NCBI GenBank assembly: GCA_963701025.1 | Contig: OY969557.1 | Span: 1-34,848 of the forward strand | DNA length: 34,848 bases | Source: an uncultured bacterium | GTDB taxonomy: Bacteria > Patescibacteriota > Minisyncoccia > Phycocordibacterales > PALSA-1337 | Reading direction: 5' to 3' | Position numbers and translations under genes: made by a program | Notes under the pieces: generated by a model | Database searches by the model: none | What the model was told of the DNA's origin: nothing | What the model saw: the letters and a program-made list of their open reading frames with translations, nothing else | In this document: in pieces, positions 188 through 32,643 of the stretch | Numbering within the stretch: position 1 is the first letter of the stretch | How the letters are laid out: the number at the start of each line of letters is the position of its first letter

Positions 188-1105
188 ATGATTACTTTAT
201 CAAATGGCCATAAGTTTGAATATATGGTCGCAAGCGGCGCTCTTGCTTTTGACGGCAAAGGTTGGCCTTGGGAAAGGCCACTTGTCAAACTTGGACTTAT
301 CAAACCTGAACTCTTCACTGTTGTCATAAAATCTCTGACACGCAATCCGCGTGCCGGAAACCTTCGATGGTGGAAGCCGTGGACATGCATTCGTCTAATC
401 CGGGGCGGTTCGGTCAACAAAGTCGGTCTGACCAACCCTGGCATCGAGTGGTGGTGCAAAGAAGTCGGTCCGAGACTCGACTTAAAGAAATTCTCGATCG
501 CTGGATCAATATTCGGTGAAGGCAGAGATCTTGAAGAATCGGCTGTCATGTTGAATCGCTTCGATCTTGTTGCACTCGAAGTAAACAGCTCGTGTCCAAA
601 CACAGGGCACGCAATGCAACAGGTCGAAGCTATCGTGAGAGATGTGCAGCTCGTCAAAAGAGTTTCTCGTCATCCGATTATCACCAAAGTTTCTGTGGAT
701 CAGGACTATCTCACTATCGCCCGGGAACTTGTCGGGACTGCGGAAGCGGTCTCTCTCAATAGTGTGCCATGGAAGACGGTCTTCAATAGTGGCGAGCAAA
801 CGCCTTTGTGGAGACTCGAAAAGCAAATCGGTGCTGGAGGCGGCGGTGTTTCTGGCAAGCCGGCGCAGGAACATAATTGGTTGGCGGTGAGAAGACTTGC
901 CGCCGATGATCATCTTCCTGTAATTGCACCGAGCGTTATGGAATATGATGATATGAATTGGGTGAGAACAAGGCTTGGAGCGAAAGCCGTGAGCTTTGGT
1001 GCGATTCATCTGCCTACAAAAGGGAAACCATGGACCCTTTTTACAAATCCATGCAGACCAACCTTATTCGTAAAACGCGAAATGAAGGAGAAAGGAAAAT
1101 TATGA
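188..1105 (+). CDS. pyrD: Dihydroorotate dehydrogenase, class 1-like
   Basis: NKVGLTNPG FMN motif, EVNSSCPN catalytic Cys loop, GGGGVSGK; first gene of the pyr cluster. Confidence 0.85.
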   Translation: MITLSNGHKFEYMVASGALAFDGKGWPWERPLVKLGLIKPELFTVVIKSLTRNPRAGNLRWWKPWTCIRLIRGGSVNKVGLTNPGIEWWCKEVGPRLDLKKFSIAGSIFGEGRDLEESAVMLNRFDLVALEVNSSCPNTGHAMQQVEAIVRDVQLVKRVSRHPIITKVSVDQDYLTIARELVGTAEAVSLNSVPWKTVFNSGEQTPLWRLEKQIGAGGGGVSGKPAQEHNWLAVRRLAADDHLPVIAPSVMEYDDMNWVRTRLGAKAVSFGAIHLPTKGKPWTLFTNPCRPTLFVKREMKEKGKL

Positions 1106-2259
1106 TGTCACATGCTGAAGCGATAGAAAGTGTCACTGGGGAAAAACAAGTGATCTTCATTCCCAGATGGTTCGATCGGCACCTTCACATACGTGACGGT
1201 GAGATGATGAAGACGGTCCTGCCGTGCACGCTTAATCAGCGTGCTACAGGGGCGATCATCATGCCAAACCTTATCAGGCCTGGAGGTATTCCAGATCCAG
1301 TGGATTCGATCGAGAAGGCATTAGCCTACAAGAAGAGGATCATTCAAGCGATGACTGATCTTCGCTTTGATATAAATGCATCTGAAGCCAAACAGTGGCA
1401 TTGGGTAAATGATCACTCCGACTTCAAACTTTGCATGACTTGCTACCTTACGGATTCGATCACTCCGGAAGAAGTCGTGCGTGGTTTTGAAGAAGGTGCA
1501 TGGTGTGCGGTCAAGCTCTACATGGCCAATCAAAAAGGCCAAGGTGGAACGACTGGGTCGCACGCAGGCGTCAGAAATCTCCTTGGTCGTTATTCGGTGT
1601 TCGAAGCTATGGAGAAACATAAAATTCCATTACTGGGGCACTTCGAAGCCGTTGAGGAAGATGTGGACGAATTCGATCGCGAGATTGTCTCCATTGAACG
1701 CGACATGCTACCGATCGCCAAGAAATTCCGTGGAATGCCGATAGTTGTCGAGCATTTGACGGACGGTCGCGTTGCGGAAATTGTAGCCGAAAGCGACATG
1801 AACCTGCGGGCAACAGTGACAGCGCATCATCTCATGATCAATCGCAATGCAATGTTCTGGAATGGTATGAATCCCGTCCACTACTGCAAGCCTGTGCCGA
1901 AGCGCGAAACGCATCGGCTCAAGGTTCGCGAGTATGTGACATCCGGCGATCGTCGCTTTGGCGCCGGAACAGATTCGGCTCCGCACGATGAATCGGCCAA
2001 GTCGCGCTGTTGCGGTTGTGCGGCCGGAATATTCACCGCACCGGCGGCCGTTGAGATGTATACGACGGTATTTGACGAGGACAATGCGTTGGAACATCTT
2101 GGCCCATTTCTTTCTGAAAACTTCCTCGACCGATATGGCATGGAAGTGAGCAAGGAAATGATGACGATCAAGCGCATTCTGATGCAGATTCCGCAGAAAA
2201 TCGGCAACGTGCAGGTCTTCAAAGGAGGCACGGAACTCCAATGGAAGCTTGTTTGTTGA
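1102..2259 (+). CDS. pyrC: Dihydroorotase (E. coli-like homodimeric type)
   Basis: DRHLHIRDG (HxH), KLY carbamylated Lys, CKP, GTDSAPH; start placed at the ATGA overlap with the pyrD stop. Confidence 0.92.
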   Translation: MMSHAEAIESVTGEKQVIFIPRWFDRHLHIRDGEMMKTVLPCTLNQRATGAIIMPNLIRPGGIPDPVDSIEKALAYKKRIIQAMTDLRFDINASEAKQWHWVNDHSDFKLCMTCYLTDSITPEEVVRGFEEGAWCAVKLYMANQKGQGGTTGSHAGVRNLLGRYSVFEAMEKHKIPLLGHFEAVEEDVDEFDREIVSIERDMLPIAKKFRGMPIVVEHLTDGRVAEIVAESDMNLRATVTAHHLMINRNAMFWNGMNPVHYCKPVPKRETHRLKVREYVTSGDRRFGAGTDSAPHDESAKSRCCGCAAGIFTAPAAVEMYTTVFDEDNALEHLGPFLSENFLDRYGMEVSKEMMTIKRILMQIPQKIGNVQVFKGGTELQWKLVC

Positions 2260-2276
2260 AATTGAAAATATCACTC

Positions 2277-2312
2277 GGCCCTGGCACTTCATTGTTGTCA
2301 GGGCTGATTTTT
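2277..2312 (+). terminator. Probable intrinsic terminator after pyrC
   Basis: GGCCCTGGCA/TGTCAGGGCT stem followed by ATTTTT. Confidence 0.55.
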
Positions 2313-2429
2313 ATCTGAAGCTTTACTTTCAGACTATTTTAAAGTAGTGTTCCGCTAGAAGTCAGGAGGTTCTGACAAGCCAAACACGCAGCTTTATAGC
2401 GTTATAAACGAACATTGAAAGGAATAAAT

Positions 2430-3161
2430 ATGAAGCCAATCATTCCATTGCCAGGAGAAAATCTTTTGGAACTTGGAAAACGTTGCAATGCAGTTTATGT
2501 CTGTCCGAAAGTCGGCTCCGAGCGCAGGGGACCTTTGGTCGCCTACGCAGGGAAAGACAGCAAGGGACGGAATCTTGTCGGAGACATCTACTTCAACTTC
2601 CGGCGGATTGAGGAACACCAGGAGGTAGTCTCGGTATTTGCATGGGCAGCATTACAGAAGCTTCAGGATAAAACATTGATCGATTCGTTCGACACTATCT
2701 GCGGGATTCCGCAAGGCGGGCGGACGTTCGGCCAAGCGCTCGCACGCATCGCCCAAAAACGATTCGTGTATGCGGACAAGAAGCCGAAGCCTGCAGATTA
2801 CGCAAAATTGGGTCAGAAACAGGAATACATCTGGGATCTCTCGCAGTTTGAATTCGAAAAGGGTGAACGTGTCGCCATCGCAGAAGACGTTTACAACAAC
2901 TTCCAAAATACCGACAACACCCTGGCGGAAATCGCCGTCACCGGAGCCGAGATCGTGCTTCTCATTGGAGCACTCAATCGCTCTCCGGTTTACGACACGA
3001 CCTACAAAGGTCTGCCGGTGATCGCTTCCATCCGTGAAGCATATCCTGAATACAATCAAGACGATCCTGCGGTCGCGGCGGACATTGCCGCCGGCAAGCT
3101 CGAACTCGAAGTGAAGAAAAACTGGGCAAAACTCGTTGCGGCAATGAATGCTGTAGTGTAG
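2430..3161 (+). CDS. pyrE: Type I phosphoribosyltransferase, probable orotate PRTase
   Basis: GIPQGG, VAIAEDV PRPP-loop start, PRT fold layout; lies between pyrC and pyrF. The loop continues atypically (EDVYNNFQNT). Start at ATG 2430. Confidence 0.75.
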   Translation: MKPIIPLPGENLLELGKRCNAVYVCPKVGSERRGPLVAYAGKDSKGRNLVGDIYFNFRRIEEHQEVVSVFAWAALQKLQDKTLIDSFDTICGIPQGGRTFGQALARIAQKRFVYADKKPKPADYAKLGQKQEYIWDLSQFEFEKGERVAIAEDVYNNFQNTDNTLAEIAVTGAEIVLLIGALNRSPVYDTTYKGLPVIASIREAYPEYNQDDPAVAADIAAGKLELEVKKNWAKLVAAMNAVV

Positions 3162-3190
3162 ATTTCCCTCAACAACAAAAGGAAAAGTGT

Positions 3191-3934
3191 ATGCAAAAAA
3201 CATTGACACCGGCGGAACGTTTGATCGTTGCCGCTGACTTCAAGCCTGACCCTAAACAAGGTCAAGGCCGAGACTGGACGATTATGAAAGTGATTCGTCT
3301 TGCACAAAGCCTCAAAGGAACGGGAGTTTGTCTCAAGGTGAATTCTGCCTTGCGGGCTTGTGGTTACACTCTGATAAAACAGATCCACGAGGAAGGTCTC
3401 AAGGTTTTCGCAGATCTCAAACTCTTTGACATCGGCGAGACATTATCCACTGACGGCATCCTGTTGAAGGAAGCGAAGCCTGAACTACTCACTACTGTCT
3501 GTGTTGCAGGAGTTACCGCCATGCAGGCTTTGAAGGCTGAACTGCCGGACACGGAAGTGCTCGGCGTGACGGTTCTGACGAGTCTCAAAGATGCTGACAC
3601 GCAAGCGATGTTCACCTGTTCGACCGAAGAAGCCGTCATGCGGTTCGCCCAAGTTGCGGCAGATGCCAAGATCGACGGGCTCATCTCGTCTCCGAAAGAA
3701 GCAGAAGTGCTTCGCGCGAAATTCGGCATCGTCTTGTCGCTTAATACCCCGGCTATCCGGCCGACATGGGCGATCGTTCCTGGTGATGATCAAAATCCCG
3801 AACGGATCATGACCCCTGCAAAGGCCATCAAGGCCGGCGCAGATCGTATCGTAGTCGGTCGGCCGATCGTGAAAGCCGAAAAGCCCTACGACGCGGTCAT
3901 GCGAACAATCGAGGAGATTGCGTCTGTCACATAA
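3191..3934 (+). CDS. pyrF: Orotidine-5'-phosphate decarboxylase
   Basis: LIVAADF, DLKLFDIGET (DxKxxDIxxT), VTVLTS, PAIRP, VVGRPI. Confidence 0.95.
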   Translation: MQKTLTPAERLIVAADFKPDPKQGQGRDWTIMKVIRLAQSLKGTGVCLKVNSALRACGYTLIKQIHEEGLKVFADLKLFDIGETLSTDGILLKEAKPELLTTVCVAGVTAMQALKAELPDTEVLGVTVLTSLKDADTQAMFTCSTEEAVMRFAQVAADAKIDGLISSPKEAEVLRAKFGIVLSLNTPAIRPTWAIVPGDDQNPERIMTPAKAIKAGADRIVVGRPIVKAEKPYDAVMRTIEEIASVT

Positions 3935-6553: not shown

Positions 6554-7885
6554 TTAGACTGATTCTATGGTTACAACCTTCGCCGTTACCTTGATCTTCG
6601 ACTTAAAGCATCCCATGAGCTCGCGTTTTTCTTCGTTGGTGCCCTCGCATAGAATGTATTTGGCGTAAGTCTTGAGGTCGATGTCCTTATGCGTCGATTC
6701 CTGCTTCTTGATGCCGAGCACTCCTTTATGGAATTTGTTGTGGCGTTTCAACTCCTCCTCGAATTTATGCTGTATGCCGACATCGTTTAAGTCGATCTGA
6801 TCCATGATAGAGAGGAGCTGTTCAACTAACTCTTCCTCTCGTATGTACTGGCTTTTACAATGTCGGTCTTTCGATCTGCCGCATCCGTAGTAGATGTACT
6901 TGGCCACCGTGCCATCTTTCAACTGCTTGTACTTTTCCTCGGCTGATATGCTCGATCCGCAGAGGCCGCATACCATGAGCTTGGTGAAGGCGAACTCATG
7001 GCTTTGCCGTTCAATACCGTCCCGATGCATTTGTTCTTGTACTCTATCGAATAGCTCTTTTGACACGATCGGCTCATGTTTACCCTGATACCAGTTTCCA
7101 GACTTTTTCGGATACTCGAATGTGCCGTAATAGAAGGGATTTTGGAGAGTGCGGAATATATTACCTAGGGCCATATTGTGATTACCGATCGTCTTGAAGT
7201 TAAGATCGAATTTGAGCCAGTGATATATTTTTCGACCAGACCATTTTTCATCGGCCATTTTTTCGTACATCTTTTTTACGATCGGCGCCCGATCAAGATC
7301 GATGATTTTTTGGCATTTTTTGTCTATCAACTTCTGATCCAAGTATCCGACTGGAGCCATTCCTGGAAATAGCCCCATCTCTACTCTCGTTCTCAGTCCG
7401 CGCTTTACATTGATGCCTCGGTTATCATTCTCGAGCTTGGCCTGACTTCCTAGTATCATAAGGAGGAACTTTTCGTTAGGATTATTTCTGAAGCTCTGTC
7501 CATATGTCCTTATTTCCTGAAGCTTTCCGGCATCCATAAGGTCGACGATTTTACCAAGGTCACCGGCGTTGCGGCTGATCCTATCTGGTGCCCAGGTGAG
7601 AATGCCGTTGAACTTGCCTTGCCTGATTTCATCGACGATCTCATTGAAGACCGGCCTTTGCCCAGTCTCTTTAGCAGAGTGGCTTTCACGCTTCATTGTC
7701 ACGATCTCAAGTCCCTCACGTTCAGCTAGTTGGAGCATCTCCTTGATCTGGCTGTCGATGGAGAGGACTTGGCGTTCCTCTGATTCAGTACTTTTTCTCG
7801 CGTAGAGGCAGTATTTGACGGGTATGATTTCCGGGGCCTGCCTCGCTATTTGTCCCAGATTTACCCTTGTGGTTGCTTGTTGCAT
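6554..7885 (-). CDS. Large serine recombinase LSR1 (resolvase + recombinase + Zn-ribbon)
   Basis: YCLYARKST catalytic Ser, APDRISRN, CGLCG...YYGC Zn ribbon. Confidence 0.95.
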   Translation of the reverse strand: MQQATTRVNLGQIARQAPEIIPVKYCLYARKSTESEERQVLSIDSQIKEMLQLAEREGLEIVTMKRESHSAKETGQRPVFNEIVDEIRQGKFNGILTWAPDRISRNAGDLGKIVDLMDAGKLQEIRTYGQSFRNNPNEKFLLMILGSQAKLENDNRGINVKRGLRTRVEMGLFPGMAPVGYLDQKLIDKKCQKIIDLDRAPIVKKMYEKMADEKWSGRKIYHWLKFDLNFKTIGNHNMALGNIFRTLQNPFYYGTFEYPKKSGNWYQGKHEPIVSKELFDRVQEQMHRDGIERQSHEFAFTKLMVCGLCGSSISAEEKYKQLKDGTVAKYIYYGCGRSKDRHCKSQYIREEELVEQLLSIMDQIDLNDVGIQHKFEEELKRHNKFHKGVLGIKKQESTHKDIDLKTYAKYILCEGTNEEKRELMGCFKSKIKVTAKVVTIESV

Positions 7886-7914
7886 GTTTATATACCTTTT
7901 AGCCGGTATACCTC

Positions 7915-7976
7915 AAGGAATGACGCAGACCGCCCAAGGAGTCCAGAGCGTCCCGGGTGGCTATAAGTTGGTAACT
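7915..7976. repeat. Bipartite conserved site AAGGNATGACGCA-N37-39-GTTGGTAA, copy 1
   Basis: Also at 10766-10825 and 32321-32380; copies 1 and 3 share GACCGC..AAGGA(A)GTCCAGA and lie just upstream of LSR1 and LSR3. Confidence 0.7.
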
Positions 7977-8031
7977 AATGCTTCAAAATTCCCTTGAAAA
8001 TGCTAGAATTCAATATCACTCGTGCGATTTT

Positions 8032-10737
8032 ATGATTACCCTTAACGAAATCAGGAAACGGTCCGTCGCATTCGCCCATGAATGGGAACGAGAGTATAGC
8101 GAAGATGCGGAAGCAAAAAGCTTTTGGGATGGGTTTTTCAATGTCTTCGGCGTTTCTCGCAGGCGCGTAGCCACTTTTGAGTATCCGGTCAAAAAGTTAG
8201 ACGGTGGGCAGGGATATATTGATGTCATTTGGAAAGGCATTATGCTTGCTGAACATAAAACTCGTGGCAAAAGCCTGGATAAAGCATATGCTCAGGCCAG
8301 AGAGTATTTTCCCGGTTTGAAAGACCAAGAGCTTCCCCGATATATTGTCGTCTCCGATTTTGAAAAAATCCGCTTGTATGATTTGGAGACGAATAAACAT
8401 GAAGAATTTCTACTCAAAGATCTGCATAACTACGTAGACCTTTTCGGCTTTATTTCAGGCTACAGGGTTCAGGTATATGAAAAAGCAGAAGAAGCAAGCA
8501 TTGAGGCCGCTGAATTGATGGCTGATTTTCATAATGAGATAGCGAAGACGGGATATAGCGGACACGATCTTGAGGTCTTTCTCATCCGTATCCTTTTTTG
8601 TCTTTTTGCCGACAATACTGGTATTTTCCCAAAAAATCATTTCCGCGCGTATATAGAGAATAGGATCAACAAGGACGGTTCTGATCTCGGCATACATTTA
8701 TTGCAGATTTTCGATGTGCTCAATACGCCCAAGGAAAAGAGGCAGACGAATCTCGACGAGCAACTAATGGCATTTGACTATATCAACGGAGGCATCTTTG
8801 CTGAACGGATTAAGTCCGTATCGCTCGACGCGACCGCCCATCTCAAACTCATAAGGTGTTGTAAGTTCGATTGGTCGCAAATATCGGCGTCCATTTTCGG
8901 TTCATTGTTTCAAGGTGTCATGGACGAGAAAGCCCGTCGTCAGCTTGGTGCTCATTACACGTCGGAAATAAATATACTGAAGGTCATTCATCCACTTTTT
9001 CTCGATGAGCTTCACATCGAATTTGATCAGGTCAAATATGATTCCAAGAAACTTGATGCTTTCCATAAAAAGCTTTCACAGCTGACATTCCTCGATCCTG
9101 CATGCGGATGCGGAAATTTCCTCGTTATAGCGTATCGCGAGCTTCGCAAGCTTGAGATCGATATTCTACTTAAAAAGCGCACGACCAAAGACTCAAGTAT
9201 GCGGATATTCGGAGCCGATGAACTCTCGACGATAAATGTCAATCAATTCTACGGTATCGAGATCGAAGAATTTCCGGCTCTTGTCGCCCGTGTCGCGATG
9301 TATCTCGTCGATCATCAAATGAACCAATTGCTCTCTGAGAAGTTCGGCGAAATATACGCACGTATTCCTCTGCGGGAACCCGCAACGATCATCAACGCGG
9401 ATGCTTTGACTACTGATTGGGAAAAAGTTGTCTCGAAAGGTAAACTCTCATATATTCTCGGTAATCCGCCTTTTGTCGGCGCGCGCCTCATGGAGAAAAA
9501 ACAAAAGGAGATTTTCTTGAGCCTCTTTGATGATGCAAAAGGGGCTGGTAATCTTGATTTTGTTACCGCATGGTATGAGAAAGCGGCTCGATATATGGGG
9601 GGCACGCATATCAAGACCGCCTTCGTGTCCACAAACTCTATCTGCCAGGGTGAGCAGGTCGCCATTCTCTGGAAAAGATTGAAAGAAAAATATGCTGTAA
9701 CGATTCACTTCGCGCATGAGACGTTCAAATGGAATAACGACGCACCCGGCGTCGCCGCAGTCTATTGTGTTATTGTTGGCTTCGCTTGTTTTGATACTCC
9801 GAAAAAGTATCTCTATGAATACGAGACTATAAAAAGCGAGCCAAAAGAAAAAGAAGTCTCGCACATAAATGCGTATCTTGTCGCCGGTGGCGATGTGTTT
9901 ATAGAAAACAGACGAACTCCAGTATCTTCGGTGCCAGAAATCGTGTTTGGAAGCATGCCCAACGATGGAGGCAATTTTCTTTTTACTGAAAGCGAGAAAG
10001 ACGAGTTTCTAGAAGCGGAGCCAGGTGCAAAAGCCTTTATGAAAGAACTCATCAGTGCGAAAGAATATCTGAACGGCGAAAAACGTTATTGCTTGTGGCT
10101 CAAAGATATTGAGCCGAAAGCTTTGAAGGGACTGCCAAAGGTTTTGGAACGAGTGGAGAATATCAAAAGACTACGGGCTGAAAGCACTCGCAAAGAAACA
10201 CAGGAATTGGCACATTACCCGACTCTTTTTGGTGAGATACGTCAACCAGATAGTGACTATATTGCAATCCCCCGTGTCAGCTCAGAAAACAGGGTGTATA
10301 TTCCAATGAGTTTTTTCGATAAAGAAAAGATCGTCGGAGATACATGCCTTGCTGTTCCAAACGCTACACTGTATGACTTTGGTATTCTCCAATCTCTGAT
10401 GCATATGACGTGGGTATCGTATGTGTGTGGGAGGCTAAAGAGTGATTACCGTTACTCGAATACACTCGTCTACAATAATTTTCCTTGGCCGGAAAATGTG
10501 TCCGACGAACACAAGAAAAAAGTCGAGGAATATGCACAAAAAGTCCTCGATGTTCGTCTACAATCTTCACATAGCTCTCTCGCTGATTTATATGATCCAA
10601 ACACGATGCCACCGGAGCTTGTTAAAGCACACACTGATCTCGATAGGACGGTGGACGCGTGCTACGAAAAAAAGTTTTTAAACAAAGAGACCCGAATCGA
10701 ATTTTTATTCTGGTTGTATAAGGAATTGACTAAGTAA
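8032..10737 (+). CDS. MmeI-family (type IIL/IIG) fused restriction endonuclease-N6A methyltransferase
   Basis: N-terminal IDVIW..LAEHK PD-(D/E)xK, GAHYT, LDPACGCGNFL, GNPPF, C-terminal RYSNTLVYNNFPWP; start ATG 8032. Confidence 0.92.
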   Translation: MITLNEIRKRSVAFAHEWEREYSEDAEAKSFWDGFFNVFGVSRRRVATFEYPVKKLDGGQGYIDVIWKGIMLAEHKTRGKSLDKAYAQAREYFPGLKDQELPRYIVVSDFEKIRLYDLETNKHEEFLLKDLHNYVDLFGFISGYRVQVYEKAEEASIEAAELMADFHNEIAKTGYSGHDLEVFLIRILFCLFADNTGIFPKNHFRAYIENRINKDGSDLGIHLLQIFDVLNTPKEKRQTNLDEQLMAFDYINGGIFAERIKSVSLDATAHLKLIRCCKFDWSQISASIFGSLFQGVMDEKARRQLGAHYTSEINILKVIHPLFLDELHIEFDQVKYDSKKLDAFHKKLSQLTFLDPACGCGNFLVIAYRELRKLEIDILLKKRTTKDSSMRIFGADELSTINVNQFYGIEIEEFPALVARVAMYLVDHQMNQLLSEKFGEIYARIPLREPATIINADALTTDWEKVVSKGKLSYILGNPPFVGARLMEKKQKEIFLSLFDDAKGAGNLDFVTAWYEKAARYMGGTHIKTAFVSTNSICQGEQVAILWKRLKEKYAVTIHFAHETFKWNNDAPGVAAVYCVIVGFACFDTPKKYLYEYETIKSEPKEKEVSHINAYLVAGGDVFIENRRTPVSSVPEIVFGSMPNDGGNFLFTESEKDEFLEAEPGAKAFMKELISAKEYLNGEKRYCLWLKDIEPKALKGLPKVLERVENIKRLRAESTRKETQELAHYPTLFGEIRQPDSDYIAIPRVSSENRVYIPMSFFDKEKIVGDTCLAVPNATLYDFGILQSLMHMTWVSYVCGRLKSDYRYSNTLVYNNFPWPENVSDEHKKKVEEYAQKVLDVRLQSSHSSLADLYDPNTMPPELVKAHTDLDRTVDACYEKKFLNKETRIEFLFWLYKELTK

Positions 10738-10882: not shown

Positions 10883-10919
10883 GGGCGGAAAACAAGCTGT
10901 TGGTAACTCGGCTTCGCAA
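10883..10919. repeat. Right-arm copy GGGCGG...GTTGGTAACTCGGCTTCGCAA
   Basis: Matches GTTGGTAACTGGGCTTCGCAA at 32371-32391 except one base. Confidence 0.65.
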
Positions 10920-11024
10920 AAGGCCTTGTCTAAGCTAGGGTACTGACTAAAGCTCTTTTTTGCGCTATTATTGCCTTACAACTGAATATTAGTAGTTGAC
11001 CTAACCCTTGCGGACTTTCTGTGA

Positions 11025-11165
11025 GGCATGGTCGAAAATCCCGCTAGAGATCAAAGGACTCCTCGTCAGAGTCACTCTAGCGGGTCATACCGGGAAACTG
11101 GTATGGGCAGGGCCGAAAGGTTTTGTCGCGATGGCGAGGAGTCTTTTGACGTTCCAAGACTCCCA
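11025..11165 (+). ncRNA. Candidate structured leader RNA M1, copy 1
   Basis: 10-bp stem 11040-49/11075-84, CATACCGG-GAAA-CTGGTATG, second GAAA hairpin; same layout with different stem sequence at 32465-32582. Confidence 0.6.
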
Positions 11166-11189
11166 CCGTTTAAAACCCGCTAGAGTTTT

Positions 11190-11876
11190 ATGAAAAACTT
11201 CACAAATTTTCTGAATGAAGAGAAAATTAAAGATAACATAGCTTCTTTTGAGAAAGATCATCACCCACTATCGCGTGGCGCCTCGTTTGATTATTGCTTC
11301 AATTATTTTCAAGAATTTACAGACAAGAAAAAAATTGCCAGTAAAGACAATATACAAAAAAGTTGTCTCCACCTGGCTTTTTATTTAGCCAGTTGGGGGA
11401 TGTTAAGAAATTCATTCTTATTACAAAAAAGTATGAAGTATTTTGAACCACTTATGGAATATTTTTCAACAGATGATTGCGACGTCTGGAATATAGACGT
11501 GGATAAATACGATGAAGAAAATATCATTAAATTAACTGAATGCTACGGGAAAATAAAAGATATTTTATTGAAAGGAGAGGACAAAAGACATGAAATGGGT
11601 ACTTTGGTAACAAAAATAATGTTAGGTGTATTTGGCAATGTACCAGCGTTTGATGCGTATTTCAGGAATGGTTTCGGATTTGGTACCTTTAATAAAAAAT
11701 CACTCGTTCACATTAGTGAATTTTATAAGAATGGTAACTACCCAAGACTTATCTCTGATGAAGCAAATAGAATTAAGACTTTTGATTATGATAGTGGAAA
11801 ATCAACCGATAGATCATACACCAGAGCAAAGATAGTAGACGCGATATTTTTTATAGAAGGATTTAATAAACAATAA
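11190..11876 (+). CDS. Conserved hypothetical protein (possible HhH-glycosylase-like fold)
   Basis: Clean 228-aa ORF; LAFYLASWGM and TLVTKIMLGVFGNVPAFD motifs; fold call is inference. Confidence 0.6.
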   Translation: MKNFTNFLNEEKIKDNIASFEKDHHPLSRGASFDYCFNYFQEFTDKKKIASKDNIQKSCLHLAFYLASWGMLRNSFLLQKSMKYFEPLMEYFSTDDCDVWNIDVDKYDEENIIKLTECYGKIKDILLKGEDKRHEMGTLVTKIMLGVFGNVPAFDAYFRNGFGFGTFNKKSLVHISEFYKNGNYPRLISDEANRIKTFDYDSGKSTDRSYTRAKIVDAIFFIEGFNKQ

Positions 11877-13495: not shown

Positions 13496-14767
13496 CTATT
13501 TTTGCTCCTGCGGCGGTGCCACAGGCCTGTTCTGATAGCTCTTTTTTGCTTCCGCAAGTACCCTTGATATTTCCTCCCTCGGCGGATCTTTCCGATCGAG
13601 ATCGGTAAACTGGATGCCGCGTTCCTTGTACCATCCGAAGAGCCAATCGTAGAAGTAGGTGGTCATATGCTTGTATCCCTCAGCGCTTGTAAGGGGCCAC
13701 AGAAGATCGACGTTGCCATAATAGCGTTGATAGGAGTCATCGGCGATCGTGAAGTGCGTCCGTGGAGTGTCGATCGGCACGGATATGACGAACGGCTCCA
13801 TTTGCGCGATGAGGGGAGTTTGGTATATCACTTTTTCCGGCCTGTATCTAGGCTCCCGTCCTTCGAGTATATAGGGGTTGCTGTCGTCATCATCACGACC
13901 ATCGCGGTGCCAACCCAAGATCTTCAGCAGAAACTCTCGGGTCCATACTCCTCGGGTGAAATGTCCCCTCATCCTTTCGATACTGTCGAGATCAGGAAAC
14001 CGCTCCGGCCAGAGAATGCGCCGCTCGTCGTCGAGGAGGGGGTACGCTCGAAAGATGCCGGATAGACCTTTTTCGTCAATCTTTTTCTTGAGTCTCATAA
14101 GGAGCGAATCAGGACAGATGAGATTGCCGAGGACAACGATCCGCGTTCCCTTGCTTCCAAGCGGCAAGACCTCGCTCGTCAGCCTCTGCCAGGCGGTGTT
14201 GCGGTTCGCTTCATCCTTGGCTGTCGAGGTGTCCTCGATGTCATCGCAGATGATGAGGTCAGGACGGATCGTGCCGTACTTGAGGCCGCGGATGCTCTGC
14301 TCAAGCGACACCGATTGAATCTTCGATTCGTGATACACGAGATCGAGCGACATCTTTTTCCATTCAGCCTCGTTGTCGCTGAAGGGTCCGAAGTCCGCCC
14401 GCAGGAGTTCGTTCGAGAGAAGCTCGTCACGGATACTCGTGAAGTGACTCTTGGCCTGATCCTGCGTCTGGCTGACGATGACTGCGAACTTCTTTTGTGG
14501 CTTGCCGAGGATAGACCAGAGAATGTTGCCGGTATTCATGATTGTGGACTTGCCGGATTCCCTGAATGCCATGACGGCGATGAGCTGATGTGACGGGTTT
14601 TTCAAGATGTGGCCCATCTCGCGATGGAAGGGAGCCAGGGGATGCGAGAGGTGGTGCCGCAGATAGATGAGGCAGAACCAAAGAGGATCCTCGTAGGCAA
14701 AGCGCTTCCGTAAGTTCTGGTCGGCGAGCACTCGCTTCAGTTTTTCAAGGTCAAAATCATTCGGCAT
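13496..14767 (-). CDS. Terminase large subunit-like ATPase; nuclease domain not recognisable
   Basis: AFRESGKST Walker A, LIICDDIE Walker B, VVLGN motif III, LWPERF; C-terminal part unlike an RNase H domain. Confidence 0.75.
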   Translation of the reverse strand: MPNDFDLEKLKRVLADQNLRKRFAYEDPLWFCLIYLRHHLSHPLAPFHREMGHILKNPSHQLIAVMAFRESGKSTIMNTGNILWSILGKPQKKFAVIVSQTQDQAKSHFTSIRDELLSNELLRADFGPFSDNEAEWKKMSLDLVYHESKIQSVSLEQSIRGLKYGTIRPDLIICDDIEDTSTAKDEANRNTAWQRLTSEVLPLGSKGTRIVVLGNLICPDSLLMRLKKKIDEKGLSGIFRAYPLLDDERRILWPERFPDLDSIERMRGHFTRGVWTREFLLKILGWHRDGRDDDDSNPYILEGREPRYRPEKVIYQTPLIAQMEPFVISVPIDTPRTHFTIADDSYQRYYGNVDLLWPLTSAEGYKHMTTYFYDWLFGWYKERGIQFTDLDRKDPPREEISRVLAEAKKSYQNRPVAPPQEQK

Positions 14768-15185
14768 GGTTGGTTGGGACGGAAGGACTTCCGCCGGGAG
14801 CTAGGAATTCTTTGAAGAGCTTTTCCTCCTCCGGAGTCAGTTCAGGCACGCCTGTGGCTGGTCTGCGCACATTCTTGCCGCCGTAGCGCGGATGATTGTG
14901 TTTGAGCCAGAGGGCAATAGCCGGTAGTTTGCCTTCCTTTATGAGCTGGATCACCTGGGCTTCGCTCATGTCGTTAATGAATTCGACGCCCTGACTGAGC
15001 GCATCATCGCTGTCACGACGGAATTCGTTGTCTTCGCGTCGCCAGCGATAGTAGGTGTCGCGGGAGACCCCTGCTCGCTTGCAGGCGGCCATGACAATAG
15101 GCAACTCTCTGAGCGTGTCGACGAGCTTTTGCTTGTCATCCTTCAAGCGTTTATCGATCGTCTTTTGATAGGTGTCCTTAGTCAT
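14757..15185 (-). CDS. HTH protein, terminase small subunit-like
   Basis: IVMAACKRAGVSRDTYYRW HTH then helical oligomerisation region; overlaps the TerL-like start. Confidence 0.7.
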   Translation of the reverse strand: MTKDTYQKTIDKRLKDDKQKLVDTLRELPIVMAACKRAGVSRDTYYRWRREDNEFRRDSDDALSQGVEFINDMSEAQVIQLIKEGKLPAIALWLKHNHPRYGGKNVRRPATGVPELTPEEEKLFKEFLAPGGSPSVPTNHAE

Positions 15186-16524
15186 CGATTTTCTTGGCTT
15201 TTAGGCCGGTCGCTTTTTCCCAACGATTTCTGATGACCTCGGCGTAGACGGGTGACTTTTCCATGATAAAGCATCGGCGATTCATCTTGGTTGCGGCGAT
15301 GAGCGTCGATCCGCTTCCGCCAAAGGGTTCAAGGATGAGGTCGCCACGCTTCGTCAGGACCTTAAGATAAGGGATGAGGAGCTCAATCGGCTTCGTTCCG
15401 AAGATGATCTCCTGGCCGGACGATTTCTTGTCAGCGGCAGTGTGAGTGATATGATCAGTAGGGCAGATTTTCTTGCCCTTTTCATATTTTTCCCAGTGTG
15501 GCTTGCCGGATGTGGCGAATATAGCGTTCTCGTATTCATTTTGGAGAAGCTCATCGGATTCGGGCTCGAGGTTGAGAGCGACGTCACCGCCAGTACCGAC
15601 AAGAGCGATGTCGGTTTTATTGAAGAACTTGTACTTGGCCGAGAAGTCCTGCATTCGGTTCGGCACATGCCAGGTGATGGTGTTGCGATACTTCCAATGC
15701 TTCTCGAGCTCGTTCCAAATGATGCGGAGGTTCTTCGGATTCTCGAAGATGATGATCGAGAAGTCGGGTTTCTGTACCTTGGCTACGTTCGCCATCCATT
15801 TCTCCGTGAAGTCTGGCGGCAGGACGTCGGTCTCAAGGTACCGGCGATCGTGTTTGGCTCCGAATCCTGTGACGGCGTCGCCCTGCTTCTTTTTACCCTT
15901 TAGGTAGTCAAGGATATACGGGGGATCCGTGAAAACCATGTCGGCCTTTTCATCGCCCATAAGCCGAAGCATATCTGCCTCAACGGTCGAGTCGCCGCAG
16001 GCCAGGCGGGAATCGCCGAGCGCCCATACGTCGCTTTTCTTTATTTCGATCTCGTCTATCTTGAGCTTTTTAAGCTCCTTCTCAAGATCGAATTGCTCCG
16101 GAGTCTCCTCGACGGCGAAGATCTCGTCGAGGTCTTCCGAGCTGAATCCGGCCGTCGAAAGGAATGTCTCGTCGAAAGTGGCGAGGAGATCCCAATCCCA
16201 TTCGCCGACATTTTTGTTTAAGCGGATGTTGAGTTCCTTCTCCTTCTCGATATCTGGAATGTTGATATATACGACGGGTACTTCCTTGATGCCGAGCTCC
16301 TTTATAACGGAGAGACGGAAGTGGCCGCCTATAACGATGCCCTTGCGTTCCGGCGCGGAGTTGACGAGGAGAGGGTCGACGATGCCGTACTTACTGATGC
16401 TTTCTTTGAGATCCTTAGCCGCCTCGGTACTCCAAGTTCTAGGGTTATAGGACGCGGCTTTTAGATTTGTAACGGGGACGTATTCTACGCACAAACGAGT
16501 GTCTGCGGTTGGTTTGCTTTTCAT
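15178..16524 (-). CDS. ParB-like domain fused to N4C/N6A DNA methyltransferase
   Basis: YNPR...VIGGHFRL ParB-like; FTDPPY motif IV, TKP, LEPFGGSGST motif I. Confidence 0.88.
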   Translation of the reverse strand: MKSKPTADTRLCVEYVPVTNLKAASYNPRTWSTEAAKDLKESISKYGIVDPLLVNSAPERKGIVIGGHFRLSVIKELGIKEVPVVYINIPDIEKEKELNIRLNKNVGEWDWDLLATFDETFLSTAGFSSEDLDEIFAVEETPEQFDLEKELKKLKIDEIEIKKSDVWALGDSRLACGDSTVEADMLRLMGDEKADMVFTDPPYILDYLKGKKKQGDAVTGFGAKHDRRYLETDVLPPDFTEKWMANVAKVQKPDFSIIIFENPKNLRIIWNELEKHWKYRNTITWHVPNRMQDFSAKYKFFNKTDIALVGTGGDVALNLEPESDELLQNEYENAIFATSGKPHWEKYEKGKKICPTDHITHTAADKKSSGQEIIFGTKPIELLIPYLKVLTKRGDLILEPFGGSGSTLIAATKMNRRCFIMEKSPVYAEVIRNRWEKATGLKAKKIDD

Positions 16525-17263: not shown

Positions 17264-18841
17264 TCACGGGTACTTAACCCGACTAGCCCGCAAATTCGCA
17301 AAAAGCGCGAAATCGCTCGAAAAAGGCGAAAGAGAAATACCAAGTGGAGGGCGGGGCGGAATTCCCCCCTGAAACCCCCCTTCCGCCCCGCCCGCATTTT
17401 TGTTGACCGTTTGGGGAATTGCGGGAACAAATGCGAAGGGTGCGCGGGGCGAAAAAACGAGGGTGCGGTCGCGTATGACAAAGTTCGAACCGACTTTTTG
17501 GAAAAAAGATCGGATTTTAGTAGGATCACCCTCATCTGCCACAAACTTGGCTTGCTTACTCGCTTCCAGGAAATTTTTCACTGGTTCGAACCGATTTGTT
17601 GAAACCTGTGCCAAAGATGCTAATTTGTCGTTCAGAGCATGTTTTTCAGTCACCAGTTTGTTTTTGGCATTTTGATATTCTGGAAGCGTTAGAGCGTTCT
17701 CTAGGTATGCTGTCATGAGTTTGTCGAGCTTCGAATCGACGATGGTAATTTCTGCATTCACTTTATCAGTCTCATTTTTCAGAAGTTTATCATTTTCAGA
17801 TCTATCTTTTTCATTTTCAATTATTAGCCAATCAGCTACCTCGTCAGCCAGGGAGTATTTTTTCAGTTCCGTTTGCATTTGCGAAGTGATGACCTCCTCA
17901 CGAACGTATTTTTGATTGCAAACTCCTTTTCGTTTTGTGCATCGCAAATAATTATGACCTTTTTGTGTTTCTGTGGTTATGAAGCAACCGCATTCACCGC
18001 AATGGAATAGGCCTCTGTAGTCATAAGATTTCAGTTCTGACGTTTTAGGTTTGCTTTTTCTGGTCATAACCTCTTGAACATCGTCAAAAAGCTTTTTCGA
18101 GATAATAGGTTCATGCTTACCTTCATAAAATTCTCCACCATATCGAATAAGTCCATGGTAAAAGGGATTTTTCAAAAGATATTGATAGTTGGAAATAGAA
18201 AGCACGCCATCGCCAGTGCCTTTTAGACCAAGATCATTGATTTTTCTCCTGACCTGGGCGAATGTGAAATTGCCAGTGGCATATGCCTCAAAAGTCTTTT
18301 TCACGAGTATGGATTTTACCGGATCAACGACGATAGTTTTTATCTTTTTATCATTCAAATATCCCAGTGGTGCTTTTTGAGGCCATATTCCATTCTTCAA
18401 TTTCTGTCTGTGTCCGCGTTTGATGTTCTCTGACAAGTTGTCTACATAATATTTACTCTGGCCAAAGGAGATTGAAAGCATAAATTTTCCCTGCGGAGTT
18501 GCATCAAACCAGAACGTCGGGAATTTCAGATCAGTGATCTTGCCAATATCCACAAGGTAAATGACACGACCACCATCAATGGAGTTACGAGCGAGTCTGT
18601 CAGGGTGCCATGCGAGGATGCCGGAGGCCTCACCGGCTTCTATGCGGTCCAACATTTCAGCGAAAATAGGCCTGCCAGGTACTTTGGCGGTTTGTTTCTC
18701 TATAAAAGTATCGACAACATCAATTTTTTCCTTTCTAGCGAGCTCACGCAGTTCTGCCAACTGGTCAGGCAGGCTTCTGATTTGATGATCTTTGTCATCA
18801 GTCGATTTTCTGGCGTAAATAAAATATTTTTTATCACTCAT
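17264..18841 (-). CDS. Large serine recombinase LSR2 with coiled-coil insertion
   Basis: YFIYARKST, HPDRLARN, CGECG...YLRC Zn ribbon, coiled coil; its 3' end spans the predicted crossover. Confidence 0.95.
   Translation of the reverse strand: MSDKKYFIYARKSTDDKDHQIRSLPDQLAELRELARKEKIDVVDTFIEKQTAKVPGRPIFAEMLDRIEAGEASGILAWHPDRLARNSIDGGRVIYLVDIGKITDLKFPTFWFDATPQGKFMLSISFGQSKYYVDNLSENIKRGHRQKLKNGIWPQKAPLGYLNDKKIKTIVVDPVKSILVKKTFEAYATGNFTFAQVRRKINDLGLKGTGDGVLSISNYQYLLKNPFYHGLIRYGGEFYEGKHEPIISKKLFDDVQEVMTRKSKPKTSELKSYDYRGLFHCGECGCFITTETQKGHNYLRCTKRKGVCNQKYVREEVITSQMQTELKKYSLADEVADWLIIENEKDRSENDKLLKNETDKVNAEITIVDSKLDKLMTAYLENALTLPEYQNAKNKLVTEKHALNDKLASLAQVSTNRFEPVKNFLEASKQAKFVADEGDPTKIRSFFQKVGSNFVIRDRTLVFSPRAPFAFVPAIPQTVNKNAGGAEGGFQGGIPPRPPLGISLSPFSSDFALFANLRASRVKYP
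17293..17474 (-). repeat. Arm A (182 bp), inverted copy of 19123-19304
   Basis: Core-proximal ~120 bp identical; about 9 substitutions in the distal ~60 bp (manual alignment). Confidence 0.9.
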
Positions 18842-19572: not shown

Positions 19573-20184
19573 ATGAACGAAATAATCTATATACTCACGA
19601 ATGAAGCCATGCCCGGCTACGTCAAGATCGGAAAGACTACAAATAATCTTGACCAGCGCGTCAGAGAATTGAGCGCTTCTACCAGCGTTCCTTTGCCGTT
19701 TACGGTTTTCTATGCCTGTAAAGTAAAAGACGCGAAGTTCGTCGAACACCAGCTTCATGACGCTTTTGATAACAATCGGGTAAATCCTCGACGAGAATTT
19801 TTTCAGATCGCTCCGGAACGAGTAGTCGCGGCTCTAAAATTGGCGGAAATCGAAAATATCACTCCCAAGAAGGATCTGATCGAATCGGAAGAAGACCGTG
19901 AGGCTCATAAGGAAGCCCTTGAGCGGCGTGGAAGATTCAATTTTGAGCTAGCCAAAATTCCGTTGGGGGCAGAGATTTATTTCAGCCGCGATGAAAACAA
20001 AAAAGCTAAAGTCGTCGATCTGCATTCATCGCAGTCTATCGAATATAACGGAGAGATCACCAGCCTTTCAACCTCCGCCCAAAGAATCCTAGGAGCCGGT
20101 TATGGTGTAGCCGGTACAGATTACTGGATGTACGACGGCGAGACCCTCGATGAGCGCAGGAGAAGGCTTGAGAATGAAGAGTAA
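19573..20184 (+). CDS. T5orf172/GIY-YIG-like nuclease-domain protein
   Basis: IYILTNEAMPGYVKIGKT..QR..L, EHQLH, REFF. Confidence 0.85.
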   Translation: MNEIIYILTNEAMPGYVKIGKTTNNLDQRVRELSASTSVPLPFTVFYACKVKDAKFVEHQLHDAFDNNRVNPRREFFQIAPERVVAALKLAEIENITPKKDLIESEEDREAHKEALERRGRFNFELAKIPLGAEIYFSRDENKKAKVVDLHSSQSIEYNGEITSLSTSAQRILGAGYGVAGTDYWMYDGETLDERRRRLENEE

Positions 20185-20190
20185 AAATAT

Positions 20191-20424
20191 ATGGGTATAT
20201 TCAATACGAAACAATCAATTGAGGAAATGGAGAAGGACATAGATAATTGCGTTCCAGAAATGCAAAAGGTTGGAGCGATGTTTATAAATTTTAAGTTACA
20301 GAAAAAAATTATTGAGGATCAGAATGTATACAATAGTAAACAACTTTTTTGGTCTCGCTTCTTAACAATAGTTACAGCGGTTCTTGCGTTAGCAACGATT
20401 GCTTTGGTTCTAGTTACAAAATAA
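20191..20424 (+). CDS. Small protein with C-terminal transmembrane helix
   Basis: Operonic spacing; hydrophobic C-terminus LTIVTAVLALATIALVLV. Confidence 0.65.
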   Translation: MGIFNTKQSIEEMEKDIDNCVPEMQKVGAMFINFKLQKKIIEDQNVYNSKQLFWSRFLTIVTAVLALATIALVLVTK

Positions 20425-20428
20425 TTTT

Positions 20429-21559
20429 ATGGCAAGTAAATCTTCAAATAAAAATTTACATAAGGCCAGCGAAGCAAAGAAAGATGAGTTTTATACCCAG
20501 CTTGTTGATATTGAAAAAGAACTCAAGCATTACAAGGAACAATTTCGTGGCAAGGTTGTCTATTGCAATTGTGATGATCCATTCGAGAGTAATTTTTTTA
20601 AATATTTTGCCGCAAATTTTAATGCTCTCGGTCTCAAAAAGTTAATAACTACCAGTTTTACAAAGTCACCAATTGCCGGAGGACAATTGCCACTTTTTGA
20701 AGTCAAAGGCTTGAAACCGAAAGGTAAAGAGCCATTTAAGATTGAAATCAATGAAGTCCCAGATTCTAATTCTGATGGCGCCATCGGTCTCTCTGATGTC
20801 GAATGGCTGTTAAGGCACGATGCGAATGTTTCTACGCCACTCAAAACAGATGGTGATTTTCGTAGTGAGGAATGTATTGAACTGCTAGATGGGGCAGATA
20901 TTGTTGTAACTAACCCGCCATTTTCTCTGTTTCGGGAATATCTAGCGCAATTGGTGGAATTTAATAAGAAATTTCTCATTATCGGTAATGTCAATTCAAT
21001 TACCTACAAAGAGTGCTTTAAACTTATCAAAGATAACAAAATGTGGCTTGGAGCAAGTATTCACAGTGGTGATCGTGAGTTTCGAGTGCCGGACGATTAC
21101 CCTCTAAATGCTGCTGGTTCTAGGATTGATAGTGATGGTCATAAATATATCCGCGTCAAAGGAGTACGTTGGTTCACTAACCTAGACTACGAAGAACGTC
21201 ATGAAGATTTGGTGCTCTATAAAAAATATTCTCCAGAAGAATATCCGAAGTATGAAAACCATGATGCCATTAATGTTAACAAAACTTCCGAAATCCCAGT
21301 TAATTATGCTGGTGCAATAGGTGTACCGATTACTTTTCTCGATAAATATAATCCAGAACAGTTTGAGATTATTGGACTAGGTATATCAAATTCAGGAAAA
21401 GAGATTGGGGTTAAGCCGTACAAAGCAGAACATAAAAAATACAGGAAGGAAATTCAAAAAAGAGGTGCTGTTGATGGTGACTTATACATGATTACGAATG
21501 GAATCGTTGATGTTCCTTATGCACGAGTTATTATAAAAAATATGAAAGTATTAAAATAA
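20429..21559 (+). CDS. EcoRI-methylase-family adenine MTase
   Basis: KKDEFYT, VYCNCDDP..SNF, GDFRSEEC, VVTNPPFSLFREY, GVPITFLDKYNPEQFEI. Confidence 0.88.
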   Translation: MASKSSNKNLHKASEAKKDEFYTQLVDIEKELKHYKEQFRGKVVYCNCDDPFESNFFKYFAANFNALGLKKLITTSFTKSPIAGGQLPLFEVKGLKPKGKEPFKIEINEVPDSNSDGAIGLSDVEWLLRHDANVSTPLKTDGDFRSEECIELLDGADIVVTNPPFSLFREYLAQLVEFNKKFLIIGNVNSITYKECFKLIKDNKMWLGASIHSGDREFRVPDDYPLNAAGSRIDSDGHKYIRVKGVRWFTNLDYEERHEDLVLYKKYSPEEYPKYENHDAINVNKTSEIPVNYAGAIGVPITFLDKYNPEQFEIIGLGISNSGKEIGVKPYKAEHKKYRKEIQKRGAVDGDLYMITNGIVDVPYARVIIKNMKVLK

Positions 21560-21560
21560 T

Positions 21561-22667: not shown

Positions 22668-22669
22668 AG

Positions 22670-24037: not shown

Positions 24038-24042
24038 ATTTT

Positions 24043-32303: not shown

Positions 32304-32320
32304 ATGTGTCATACAGCTAC

Positions 32321-32391
32321 AAGGGATGACGCAGACCGCTAAGGAAGTCCAGATCCTTTGAAAGGGCGGAGTTGGTAACTGGGCTTCGCAA
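32321..32391. repeat. Bipartite site copy 3 with GGCTTCGCAA right arm
   Basis: Matches 7915-7976 and 10899-10919. Confidence 0.7.
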
Positions 32392-32464
32392 TCACTTGCT
32401 TTTATGGTACAGTTTCGACACAACCGAATATGTGAAAAGTAGCCTAAACCCTCGAGAAATCGGC

Positions 32465-32582: not shown

Positions 32583-32643
32583 TAGCACTACGCGGGGTTC
32601 GGGAGTATAATTTAGTCACGTTATTATTAGATAATAAATAATC

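Follow-up and report, generated by a model that had tools for sequence, protein, structure and literature searches.

The window analysed here is a whole 34,848-nucleotide (nt) stretch of DNA (contig OY969557.1, assembly GCA_963701025.1) from an uncultured bacterium of the Patescibacteriota. It contains on its plus strand two full-length copies of the LOOT RNA (Rfam RF03000), which were recognized by a cmscan search of the window and correspond to the element that an earlier sequence-only reading had labelled M1. The Rfam fold consists, in order, of helix H1, an AAAA linker, a long hairpin H2 with a basal and an apical stem, and the hairpins H3 and H4; both window copies span model positions 1-121, and the gathering score of the family is 46.4. 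Beyond H4, each copy continues into a segment, b′, that pairs with a segment, b, in the interior of H2, and here we describe this long-range helix (b:b′), its conservation across the family and its most likely role at the 3′ end of the RNA. The features of the two copies are as follows, with coordinates on the window, the two strands of the H2 basal stem named a and a′, and segments that recur further downstream named a2 and b2.

10966-10971 (+): -10-like box TATTAT of the copy 1 promoter, from a promoter scan
10978-10997 (+): 5′ leader of copy 1, ACAACTGAATA...AGT, located 5′ of the Rfam model and recognized as an upstream motif shared across 82 loci
10998-11127 (+): Rfam-modelled part of copy 1 (H1, H2, H3, H4; cmscan 81.0 bits, E 6e-14)
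11040-11049 (+): a, the 5′ strand of the H2 basal stem (10/10 pairs with 11075-11084)
11051-11068 (+): b of copy 1, comprising an A-rich bulge and the 5′ arm and loop of the H2 apical hairpin; 5′ strand of b:b′ (18/18 pairs)
11057-11073 (+): H2 apical hairpin, GACTC/GAGTC with a 7-nt loop, exclusive with b:b′ (from folding and pairing)
11075-11084 (+): a′, the 3′ strand of the H2 basal stem and alternative partner of a2 (from pairing and folding)
11132-11149 (+): b′ of copy 1, a GC-rich core followed by the U-rich tail TCTTTTGA (11142-11149; from pairing, covariation and the U-tract)
11138-11163 (+): local hairpin b′:b2, GGAGTCTT (11138-11145) with AAGACTCC (11156-11163), a perfect 8 base pairs (bp)
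11172-11186 (+): AAAA + a2, a duplicate of the linker and the H2 5′ strand, 3-4 nt before the start codon (12/12 with 11074-11085)
11190-11876 (+): downstream open reading frame (ORF), 228 amino acids, of no known family, with an initiation region that a′:a2 could mask
32403-32408 (+): -10-like box TATGGT of the copy 2 promoter, read from the sequence, 11 nt upstream of the start of an RNA contig
32420-32440 (+): 5′ leader of copy 2, ACAACCGAATA..., from the family motif and the start of the RNA contig
32420-32591 (+): metatranscriptome contig, the apparent full-length copy 2 LOOT RNA (run X23)
32441-32560 (+): Rfam-modelled part of copy 2 (cmscan 91.9 bits, E 1.7e-16)
32489-32509 (+): b of copy 2, an A-rich bulge and the whole apical hairpin (32497-32509; 19/21 pairs with 32562-32582)
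32562-32584 (+): b′ of copy 2 with the U-rich tail CTTTGTGTT (32575-32583; from pairing and the U-tract)
32582-32611 (+): sigma-70-like promoter TTAGCA-18-TATAAT (10/12 matches), between the copy 2 U-tract and the next ORF (ATG at 32644)

LOOT was published earlier (Weinberg et al. 2017, PMC5737381; Rfam 14, PMC7779021), is filed by Rfam as a small RNA (sRNA) gene, and is described in the CaCoFold paper as an RNA of six helices and about 43 bp, with 28 'cross-covariations' (PMC7657543). In the Rfam structure, H1 has a conserved internal loop (CCUAAAC/GGCAUGG), H3 is capped by GAAA and H4 by a GNRA or UUCG loop. In the literature searched, which did not extend to the 2017 supplement, the name LOOT turned up nowhere but in a reference list, the legend of a figure and a single sentence about cross-covariation, and no 3′ helix, terminator, 5′ leader, duplicated strand or recombinase link was described. 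The published model stops at H4 and is truncated at both ends.

LOOT loci were gathered with a degenerate pattern, one genome per species, which yielded 82 loci, mostly from Patescibacteria (Saccharibacteria, Parcubacteria and Microgenomates groups), along with a few contigs labelled Gammaproteobacteria. A mixed sample of the genome matches was confirmed by Rfam at 56-100 bits, and seven pattern matches on viral contigs were dropped as protein-coding repeats. The 80 distinct LOOT sequences were aligned by MAFFT, from sequence only, and column pairs were counted on this alignment, in which the CCUAA...GGCAUGG internal loop, the AAAA linker and the GAAA-capped H3 are invariant.

The part missing from the published model at the 3′ end forms the best-supported long helix of LOOT, and b:b′ is a conserved family feature, not a peculiarity of the window. 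In copy 1, the 17/17 pairing of 11051-11067 with 11133-11149 that the sequence-only reading had proposed consists of 15 Watson-Crick (WC) and 2 G-U pairs and, with the added pair 11068:11132, extends to 18/18 (16 WC, 2 G-U; 11051-11068 with 11132-11149). The same geometry with a different sequence, which that reading had described for copy 2 as 17/19, is present as well, 32489-32507 and 32564-32582 forming 13 WC pairs, 4 G-U pairs and 2 mismatches within a helix that extends to 19/21 (32489-32509 with 32562-32582). Across the family, b′ is a 16-21-nt segment directly after H4, and b:b′ occurs in essentially all 82 loci: the best ungapped helix between H2 and the 120 nt downstream has a median of 18 pairs, compared with 11 for the downstream sequences of other loci, 10 for upstream sequences and 9 for shuffled downstream sequences, and the mean duplex energy is -34.2 kcal/mol, compared with -25.2 for the downstream sequences of other loci and -19.8 for upstream sequences.

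For the column analysis, 21 b:b′ column pairs were defined from the two window copies. In the alignment, 89.5% of the cells of these columns are paired, a value that falls to 43-50% when the partner is slid by 1-3 columns and that can be set beside 95.8% for the accepted helix H3 in the same alignment. Changes on both sides are found in 20 of the 21 pairs (one position is CG in 27 sequences, AU in 22 and GC in 16), and the A-tract:U-tract part of the helix likewise includes double changes between AU and GC. Several positions are conserved G-U pairs, which implies that the pairing is selected at the RNA level on the LOOT strand. The sequence-only reading had made its alternative helix depend on conservation in further homologs, and this family-wide covariation bears it out.

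Several other interpretations of the complementary segments were considered and rejected. A DNA-level cruciform or attachment (att) site is excluded by the conserved G-U pairs and the strand specificity. A Shine-Dalgarno/anti-Shine-Dalgarno pairing of b and b′ would suit the CUCCU classes only and not CCCAUCAU or GGUCUUCU, and a model limited to a kissing loop fails because a hairpin of b′ itself can form in class I only and because the 5′ arm of b covaries directly with b′. The classes in question are few and discrete: over all loci, the apical H2 and b′ sequences (alignment columns 66-92 and 165-189) fall into groups such as ACCCAUCAUAUGGG, ACUCCUAGUCAGAGU, GCUCGUCGUCAGAGC and CGGUCUUCUGAUCG, which have a YCNUCRU-like loop core in common. 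Different b/b′ classes coexist within one genome, as in the two window copies and in loci L033 and L065 versus L081, and this coexistence may be the source of the 28 cross-covariations reported by CaCoFold.

Intrinsic terminators are marked by a GC-rich stem followed by a U-tract, with an A-tract opposite. In LOOT, the GC-rich core of b′ runs into a U-rich stretch (consensus CUUUUUGU), 91% of the loci having 5 or more T among the 8 nt that follow the core compared with 5.4% of windows in the following spacer, and the partner of this U-run on the 5′ side is the A-rich bulge AUAAAGA. The helix b:b′ therefore presents a stable GC-rich stem directly followed by a U-rich tract, with a stem that is long-range and not a simple hairpin. 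The transcript boundaries seen at copy 2 fall at the ends of this extended element: in the ribosomal RNA-depleted run X23, a 179-nt contig of depth 19.9, at least 99% identical to the window, starts at the first A of the ACAA motif of the leader and has its last aligned base 8 nt beyond the copy 2 U-tract, and no contig in that run covers the gene downstream. Copy 2 thus appears as a discrete RNA of ~170 nt, with a 3′ end that coincides with b′ and its U-tract.

The 5′ end is likewise consistent across the family. In most of the 82 upstream sequences, the leader motif ACAAYTGAATA...AGTAG lies 10-22 nt upstream of the Rfam boundary at CCTAA, and a TATAAT-like box is located 7-8 nt upstream of the ACAA motif, so that transcription probably starts at ACAA, ~20 nt upstream of the Rfam boundary. 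Other RNA libraries contain molecules that pass the putative terminator. Contigs of a2-bearing relatives of copy 1 (X10, X34, X48/X50) extend from LOOT across the U-tract and the duplicate and enter the ORF, and read-through molecules thus exist for these relatives, with carry-over of DNA possible in these libraries. No further transcript ends were obtained from X33-X37 and X48-X51, in which the contigs are long or fragmentary and include promoter DNA or break at shared words, or from X26-X29, in which they are DNA-like. From the GC-rich stem, the U-tract and the copy 2 RNA, we conclude that b:b′ is most likely a long-range intrinsic terminator, or 3′-terminal helix, of the ~170-nt LOOT RNA. 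The sequence-only reading was right that an alternative helix exists and is conserved, and it missed this primary identity, to which the conserved U-tract and the 3′ end of the copy 2 RNA point.

The same segment b is also part of the published fold. The helices that the sequence-only reading called P1 and the inner hairpin do exist, and their proper names are the basal and apical parts of the Rfam H2. The long-range helix takes up the 5′ arm and the loop of the apical hairpin, and in some classes the 3′ arm too; because the 5′ arm and the loop are used by both, b:b′ and the apical hairpin cannot coexist. The hairpin itself is supported by the folding of the H2 interior, with a mean z score of -2.4 and 94% of the loci below -1, and by its core pairs, which are paired in 76% of the cells and covary. 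Given that the apical hairpin is real as well as b:b′, two overlapping structures are conserved.

The relationship to the basal stem is less direct. The stem a:a′ is a perfect helix of 8-14 bp in nearly all of 78 loci (6 bp in L026), is crossed by b:b′, and, like b:b′ with its 20 of 21 double changes, has comparative support. The spacing is tight, usually 0-1 nt from a to b and 3-4 nt from the maximal end of b to a′, and from this geometry it seems unlikely that a fully zipped b:b′ of 18-21 bp could form with a:a′ intact. When either helix was enforced in constrained nested folding of the 78 loci, the mean energy difference (b:b′ minus H2) was +1.3 kcal/mol, with b:b′ the more stable state in 32/78 and the two states within 3 kcal/mol of each other in 38/78. 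In these folding models, a two-state switch between nested conformers of nearly equal energy is plausible. The minimum-energy fold predicted for the terminated copy 1 RNA contains b:b′. Nested minimum-energy folding was rejected as an arbiter between the states, the two copies disagreeing (b:b′ in copy 1, H2 in copy 2) and pseudoknots lying outside the model.

At some loci, a second competition involves the next start codon. In the window, CCCGCTAGAG occurs at 11040 and 11176 on the plus strand and its complement at 11075, that is, 3 matches compared with 0.03 expected from shuffled sequences, and the repeat at 11176 stops 4 nt short of the ATG at 11190, where the sequence-only reading had placed the repeat of its P1 strand (11176-11185). 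A 12-nt probe taken from the start of H2 has a copy with at least 10/12 matches 49-73 nt after H3 in 10/80 loci compared with 7/611 mismatched controls; when copies with 9/12 matches are counted as well, about a dozen loci, ~15%, carry a2 (L018, L021, L022, L024, L026, L032, L040, L051, L062, L067, L087 and window copy 1), and none is found at copy 2. The a2 sequence varies by locus and tracks the H2 of that same locus. As in LOOT itself, an AAAA comes before it, and its end lies 1-10 nt short of the start codon, except in L022, where the start codon lies within a2.

Pairing of a2 with a′ comprises 9-13 perfect pairs and is at least as long as a:a′ in 9/12 loci, and a2 is a better complement of a′ than a is in L026 (11 versus 6), L040, L051 and the window. 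Pairing that is as long as or longer than a:a′ points to selection for pairing with a′ and not to mere copying. In the predicted minimum-energy fold of the copy 1 read-through RNA, a′:a2 forms 12 bp (11074-11085 with 11175-11186) and encloses a junction of H3, H4 and the b′:b2 hairpin, with positions -15 to +3 relative to the start codon mostly paired; the competing hairpin at 11138-11163 noted by the sequence-only reading is part of this fold as a perfect 8-bp helix. Over the 12 loci, the states with a:a′ and with a′:a2 are close to isoenergetic (mean +0.8 kcal/mol), and 6/12 favour a2. A b2 segment that pairs with b′ over at least 8 bp just after the U-tract is modestly enriched (27% versus 11%), too little for b2 to be accepted as a universal element. 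The proposal of the sequence-only reading that the duplicated strand displaces P1 and hides the initiation region thus agrees with the predicted fold of copy 1 and applies to ~15% of the loci, copy 2 not being one of them. For L024, an a2-bearing family member outside the window, contigs of wastewater RNA libraries (X48-X50) match the LOOT, leader, a2 and the first three codons (2853-2861) and then diverge completely, so that another gene follows this leader immediately beyond the start codon.

We read LOOT, with a probability of roughly 0.55, as a two-state leader in which b:b′ is the terminator; as such, it probably decides the expression of the next gene of a mobile element. Transcription would start at ACAA, and H1, H2 with its small apical hairpin, H3 and H4 would fold in turn. 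On emerging, b′ would nucleate on the exposed apical loop and open the apical stem of 4-6 bp; the GC core of b:b′ would form while the U-tract is being made, causing termination and freeing a stable RNA of ~170 nt, in which the A-tract and the U-tract would then zip up. If H2 instead stays closed, b would be sequestered and the polymerase would read into the cargo gene. At the a2 loci, the read-through leader may refold, with a2 taking a′ and the ribosome-binding region becoming hidden, and the b2 segment may sometimes assist a2 by capturing b′. The choice could be set by the kinetics of folding alone, by an element-encoded protein or by a further RNA. Within this scheme, we infer termination, the exclusivity with the basal stem and any regulation of the choice.

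Several observations weigh against the two-state leader. The stem is non-canonical as a terminator, with its 5′ strand 65-80 nt upstream and a 'loop' made up of half of H2 together with H3 and H4, and a standard terminator scan made no call at copy 1. There is one clean transcript boundary only, and it comes from an assembled contig rather than from mapped 3′ ends. In the nested minimum-energy fold of copy 2, H2 is retained and the U-tract is paired locally. Both a2 and b2 are missing from most loci, and translational masking therefore cannot be the general function. Finally, a:a′ and b:b′ are both well supported and merely cross, which by the usual comparative logic suggests a pseudoknot in a single static fold and not a switch.

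That last point leads to the strongest competitor, an H-type pseudoknot in which a:a′ and b:b′ form together and lock the 3′ end. The apical hairpin would then be no more than a transient stage of co-transcriptional folding, there would be neither switching nor sensing, and LOOT would work by virtue of its shape, as an sRNA that acts in trans or binds a protein. The sequence-only reading had named a pseudoknot as its fallback, and for the basal stem with b:b′, which cross and both covary, we keep it as an unlikely but serious alternative. Strong comparative support for both crossing helices is what it predicts, the apical stem is less well paired than b:b′ (76% versus 89.5%), copy 2 is seen as a discrete, abundant RNA while the next gene has a promoter-like site of its own, and Rfam assigns LOOT to the sRNA genes. 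Yet a two-turn helix of 18-21 bp closed by a 10-bp stem would be strained, both sterically and topologically, with connectors of 0-1 and 3-4 nt, the compensatory changes in the A-tract:U-tract part imply selection on the entire length of the helix, 94% of the loci have a significantly stable apical hairpin, and a2 copies that compete for a′ would make little sense in a fold that never opens.

The next alternative turns on the genomic context of LOOT. A large serine recombinase gene is found within the 8-kb locus in 39/82 loci (among them L011, L017, L018, L021, L024, L028, L032, L033, L036, L064, L065, L067 and L083), and no correlation between b/b′ class and recombinase clade was apparent by eye. 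In the closest relatives of the window recombinase (57-67% identity), this gene is divergent and starts 140-220 nt upstream of LOOT, as it does at copy 2. Loci L033 and L065, on two contigs of one Saccharibacteria genome, have in common a 2.6-kb module, 93% identical, that begins at the 3′ end of the recombinase gene and holds the recombinase, LOOT and the next gene. LOOT thus lies inside a repeated module that is presumably mobile.

From this setting, LOOT could be a trans-acting control RNA like c4 of phage P1 or CI of satellite P4: a′ and b′ would pair with a2 and b2 on transcripts of the same or an incoming element and block the cargo, the internal a and b would keep the RNA folded or mimic the target, and the sequence classes would confer an element-specific 'immunity'. 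LOOT does head the rightward unit of a module with a large serine recombinase, a2 overlies the ribosome-binding region and changes in step with a′, b2 is enriched directly 3′ of the U-tract, and b/b′ classes differ within one genome; the c4 RNA of P1 is likewise encoded in the same operon as the genes that it blocks (PMC8198154). Against it, a′ and b′ are paired inside LOOT and are not displayed in loops, a2 is present in only ~15% and b2 in ~25% of the loci, with copy 2 lacking a2, and refolding in cis explains the same pairings more simply. This alternative, which is compatible with the two-state leader and not exclusive of it, seems to us distinctly improbable. The broadest version, in which LOOT would be the leader-encoded control RNA of Patescibacteria elements mobilized by large serine recombinases, with a two-state fold that gates the cargo and class-specific, immunity-like control in cis and in trans, we put forward as a speculative and rather doubtful extension.

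A classical metabolite riboswitch, with the LOOT core as the aptamer and b:b′ or a2 as the expression platform, is very unlikely. The RNA does have a complex conserved fold with GNRA loops and invariant internal-loop nucleotides, and, in the folding models, mutually exclusive helices (apical hairpin versus b:b′, a:a′ versus a′:a2) accompany a terminator-like element and masking of the ribosome site. The genes that would be controlled argue otherwise. The ORFs that follow LOOT share its strand and begin 40-150 nt beyond the U-tract, but 77 of them form 64 clusters, with no common pathway; 50 have an N-terminal hydrophobic segment, many are small membrane proteins, the Pfam matches range widely, from nucleases and zinc ribbons to pilins, proteases and methylases, and no Pfam family is common to more than three. 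Such hyperdiversity makes a metabolite riboswitch improbable, and the RNA moreover travels with recombinase modules, with several copies and classes per genome. The expression platform suggested by the sequence-only reading is supported in part, by the helix that is exclusive with the apical hairpin and by the near-isoenergetic conformers; its control by a ligand, a protein or an antisense RNA is hypothetical, and the downstream diversity argues against a metabolite ligand. That the segments match by chance, or form a repeat at the DNA level (a recombination site or the scar of a duplication), and play no part as RNA is scarcely credible in a window that is, admittedly, rich in recombinases and repeated motifs, and for b:b′ is already refuted, given the covariation over 80 loci, the fixed position relative to H4, the conserved G-U pairs (A-C if read on the opposite strand), the 10-mer recurrence of 3 versus 0.03 expected, and the cases in which a2 complements a′ better than a does.

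The window around the two copies is an island adjoining pyrD/pyrF (188-3934), with several restriction-modification and methylase genes. Its main features beyond LOOT are as follows.

6554-7885, 17264-18841 and 30986-32504 (-): three genes for large serine recombinases
13496-14767 (-), 15178-16524 (-) and 19573-25834 (+): features of the region between the LOOT copies

The region between the copies, a defence and mobile-element island, holds a lone terminase large subunit (PHROG 38, 3e-43), a ParB-methylase fusion, a T5orf172 protein, an EcoRI-type methylase, a GmrSD/HNH nuclease, a PD-Lambda-5_A-like protein and a Dam-type methylase. The ORFs downstream of the two LOOT copies gave no match in PADLOC, PHROGs or Pfam. 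The recombinase gene at copy 2 is split into overlapping ORFs (30986-32068 and 31911-32504, both on the minus strand), with the resolvase domain apart from the recombinase and zinc-ribbon domains; this frameshift points to a pseudogene or to a fault in the assembly. A reading by eye suggests a frameshift near 32680 in the gene that follows copy 2, where the ATG at 32644 (MKKYLIFTS..., ORF 32644-32733) is out of frame with the long ORF 32687-34096 (signal-peptide-like ...LSLMLSVATPVSAQ).

Two short repeats accompany these genes. The motif GTTGGTAACTNNGCTTC occurs at 7967-7983, 10900-10920 and 32371-32391 in the window and at 3696-3712 of L011, ~100 nt upstream of LOOT and beside recombinase 5′ ends, and may be a recombination or regulator site; two of its copies flank an MmeI-type restriction-modification gene (7978-10737), as if this gene had been inserted there. 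The 36 nt at 32298-32333, between the recombinase start and copy 2, recur on otherwise unrelated metagenome contigs with both flanks different (X26, X27) and may be an attachment site or a conserved promoter region; upstream of the first recombinase, 7914-7947 is 85% similar to 32320-32353.

Gene regulation and the control of mobile elements are almost unstudied in bacteria of the candidate phyla radiation. In these organisms, an orphan RNA known only as a covariance model would gain a concrete mechanism, that of an attenuator that also yields a stable small RNA, and a genomic role, as the first element of the cargo unit in recombinase modules. An extended model would improve the annotation of LOOT transcripts, terminators and neighbouring elements.

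Mechanistically, LOOT is a variant of terminator/antiterminator leaders. Among known systems, intrinsic terminators and attenuators, riboswitch expression platforms included, resemble it in the GC-rich stem followed by a U-tract, the A-tract on the 5′ side, the competing upstream hairpin and, in some loci, a sequestor of the ribosome-binding site. Unlike theirs, the LOOT stem joins distant strands around two and a half hairpins, the role of antiterminator falls to a 4-6-bp hairpin of the conserved RNA itself, and there is no coherent regulon. H-type pseudoknots likewise have two crossing helices, each with covariation, but in LOOT the second stem reaches 21 bp, the connecting loops are very short, and the stem overlaps a third conserved hairpin. 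In the a2-bearing loci, LOOT resembles c4 of phages P1 and P7 and CI of satellite P4, which are also small stable leader RNAs of their own operon on a mobile element (LOOT lies directly upstream of same-strand ORFs), with short segments complementary to the RNA that recur both upstream and where ribosomes bind the next gene and with classes that covary. The details of the a′/b′-a2/b2 pairing of c4 were reportedly described by Citron and Schuster in 1990. LOOT is not a member of the c4 or CI families: it has no sequence or structural homology to them, its complementary segments are internally paired, it is apparently released by termination and not by RNase P processing, and its hosts are Patescibacteria and not enterobacteria. 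If the immunity-like control is real, LOOT would be functionally similar to c4 and CI while evolutionarily unrelated to them, and would provide the first regulatory logic described for the mobile elements of these uncultivated bacteria.

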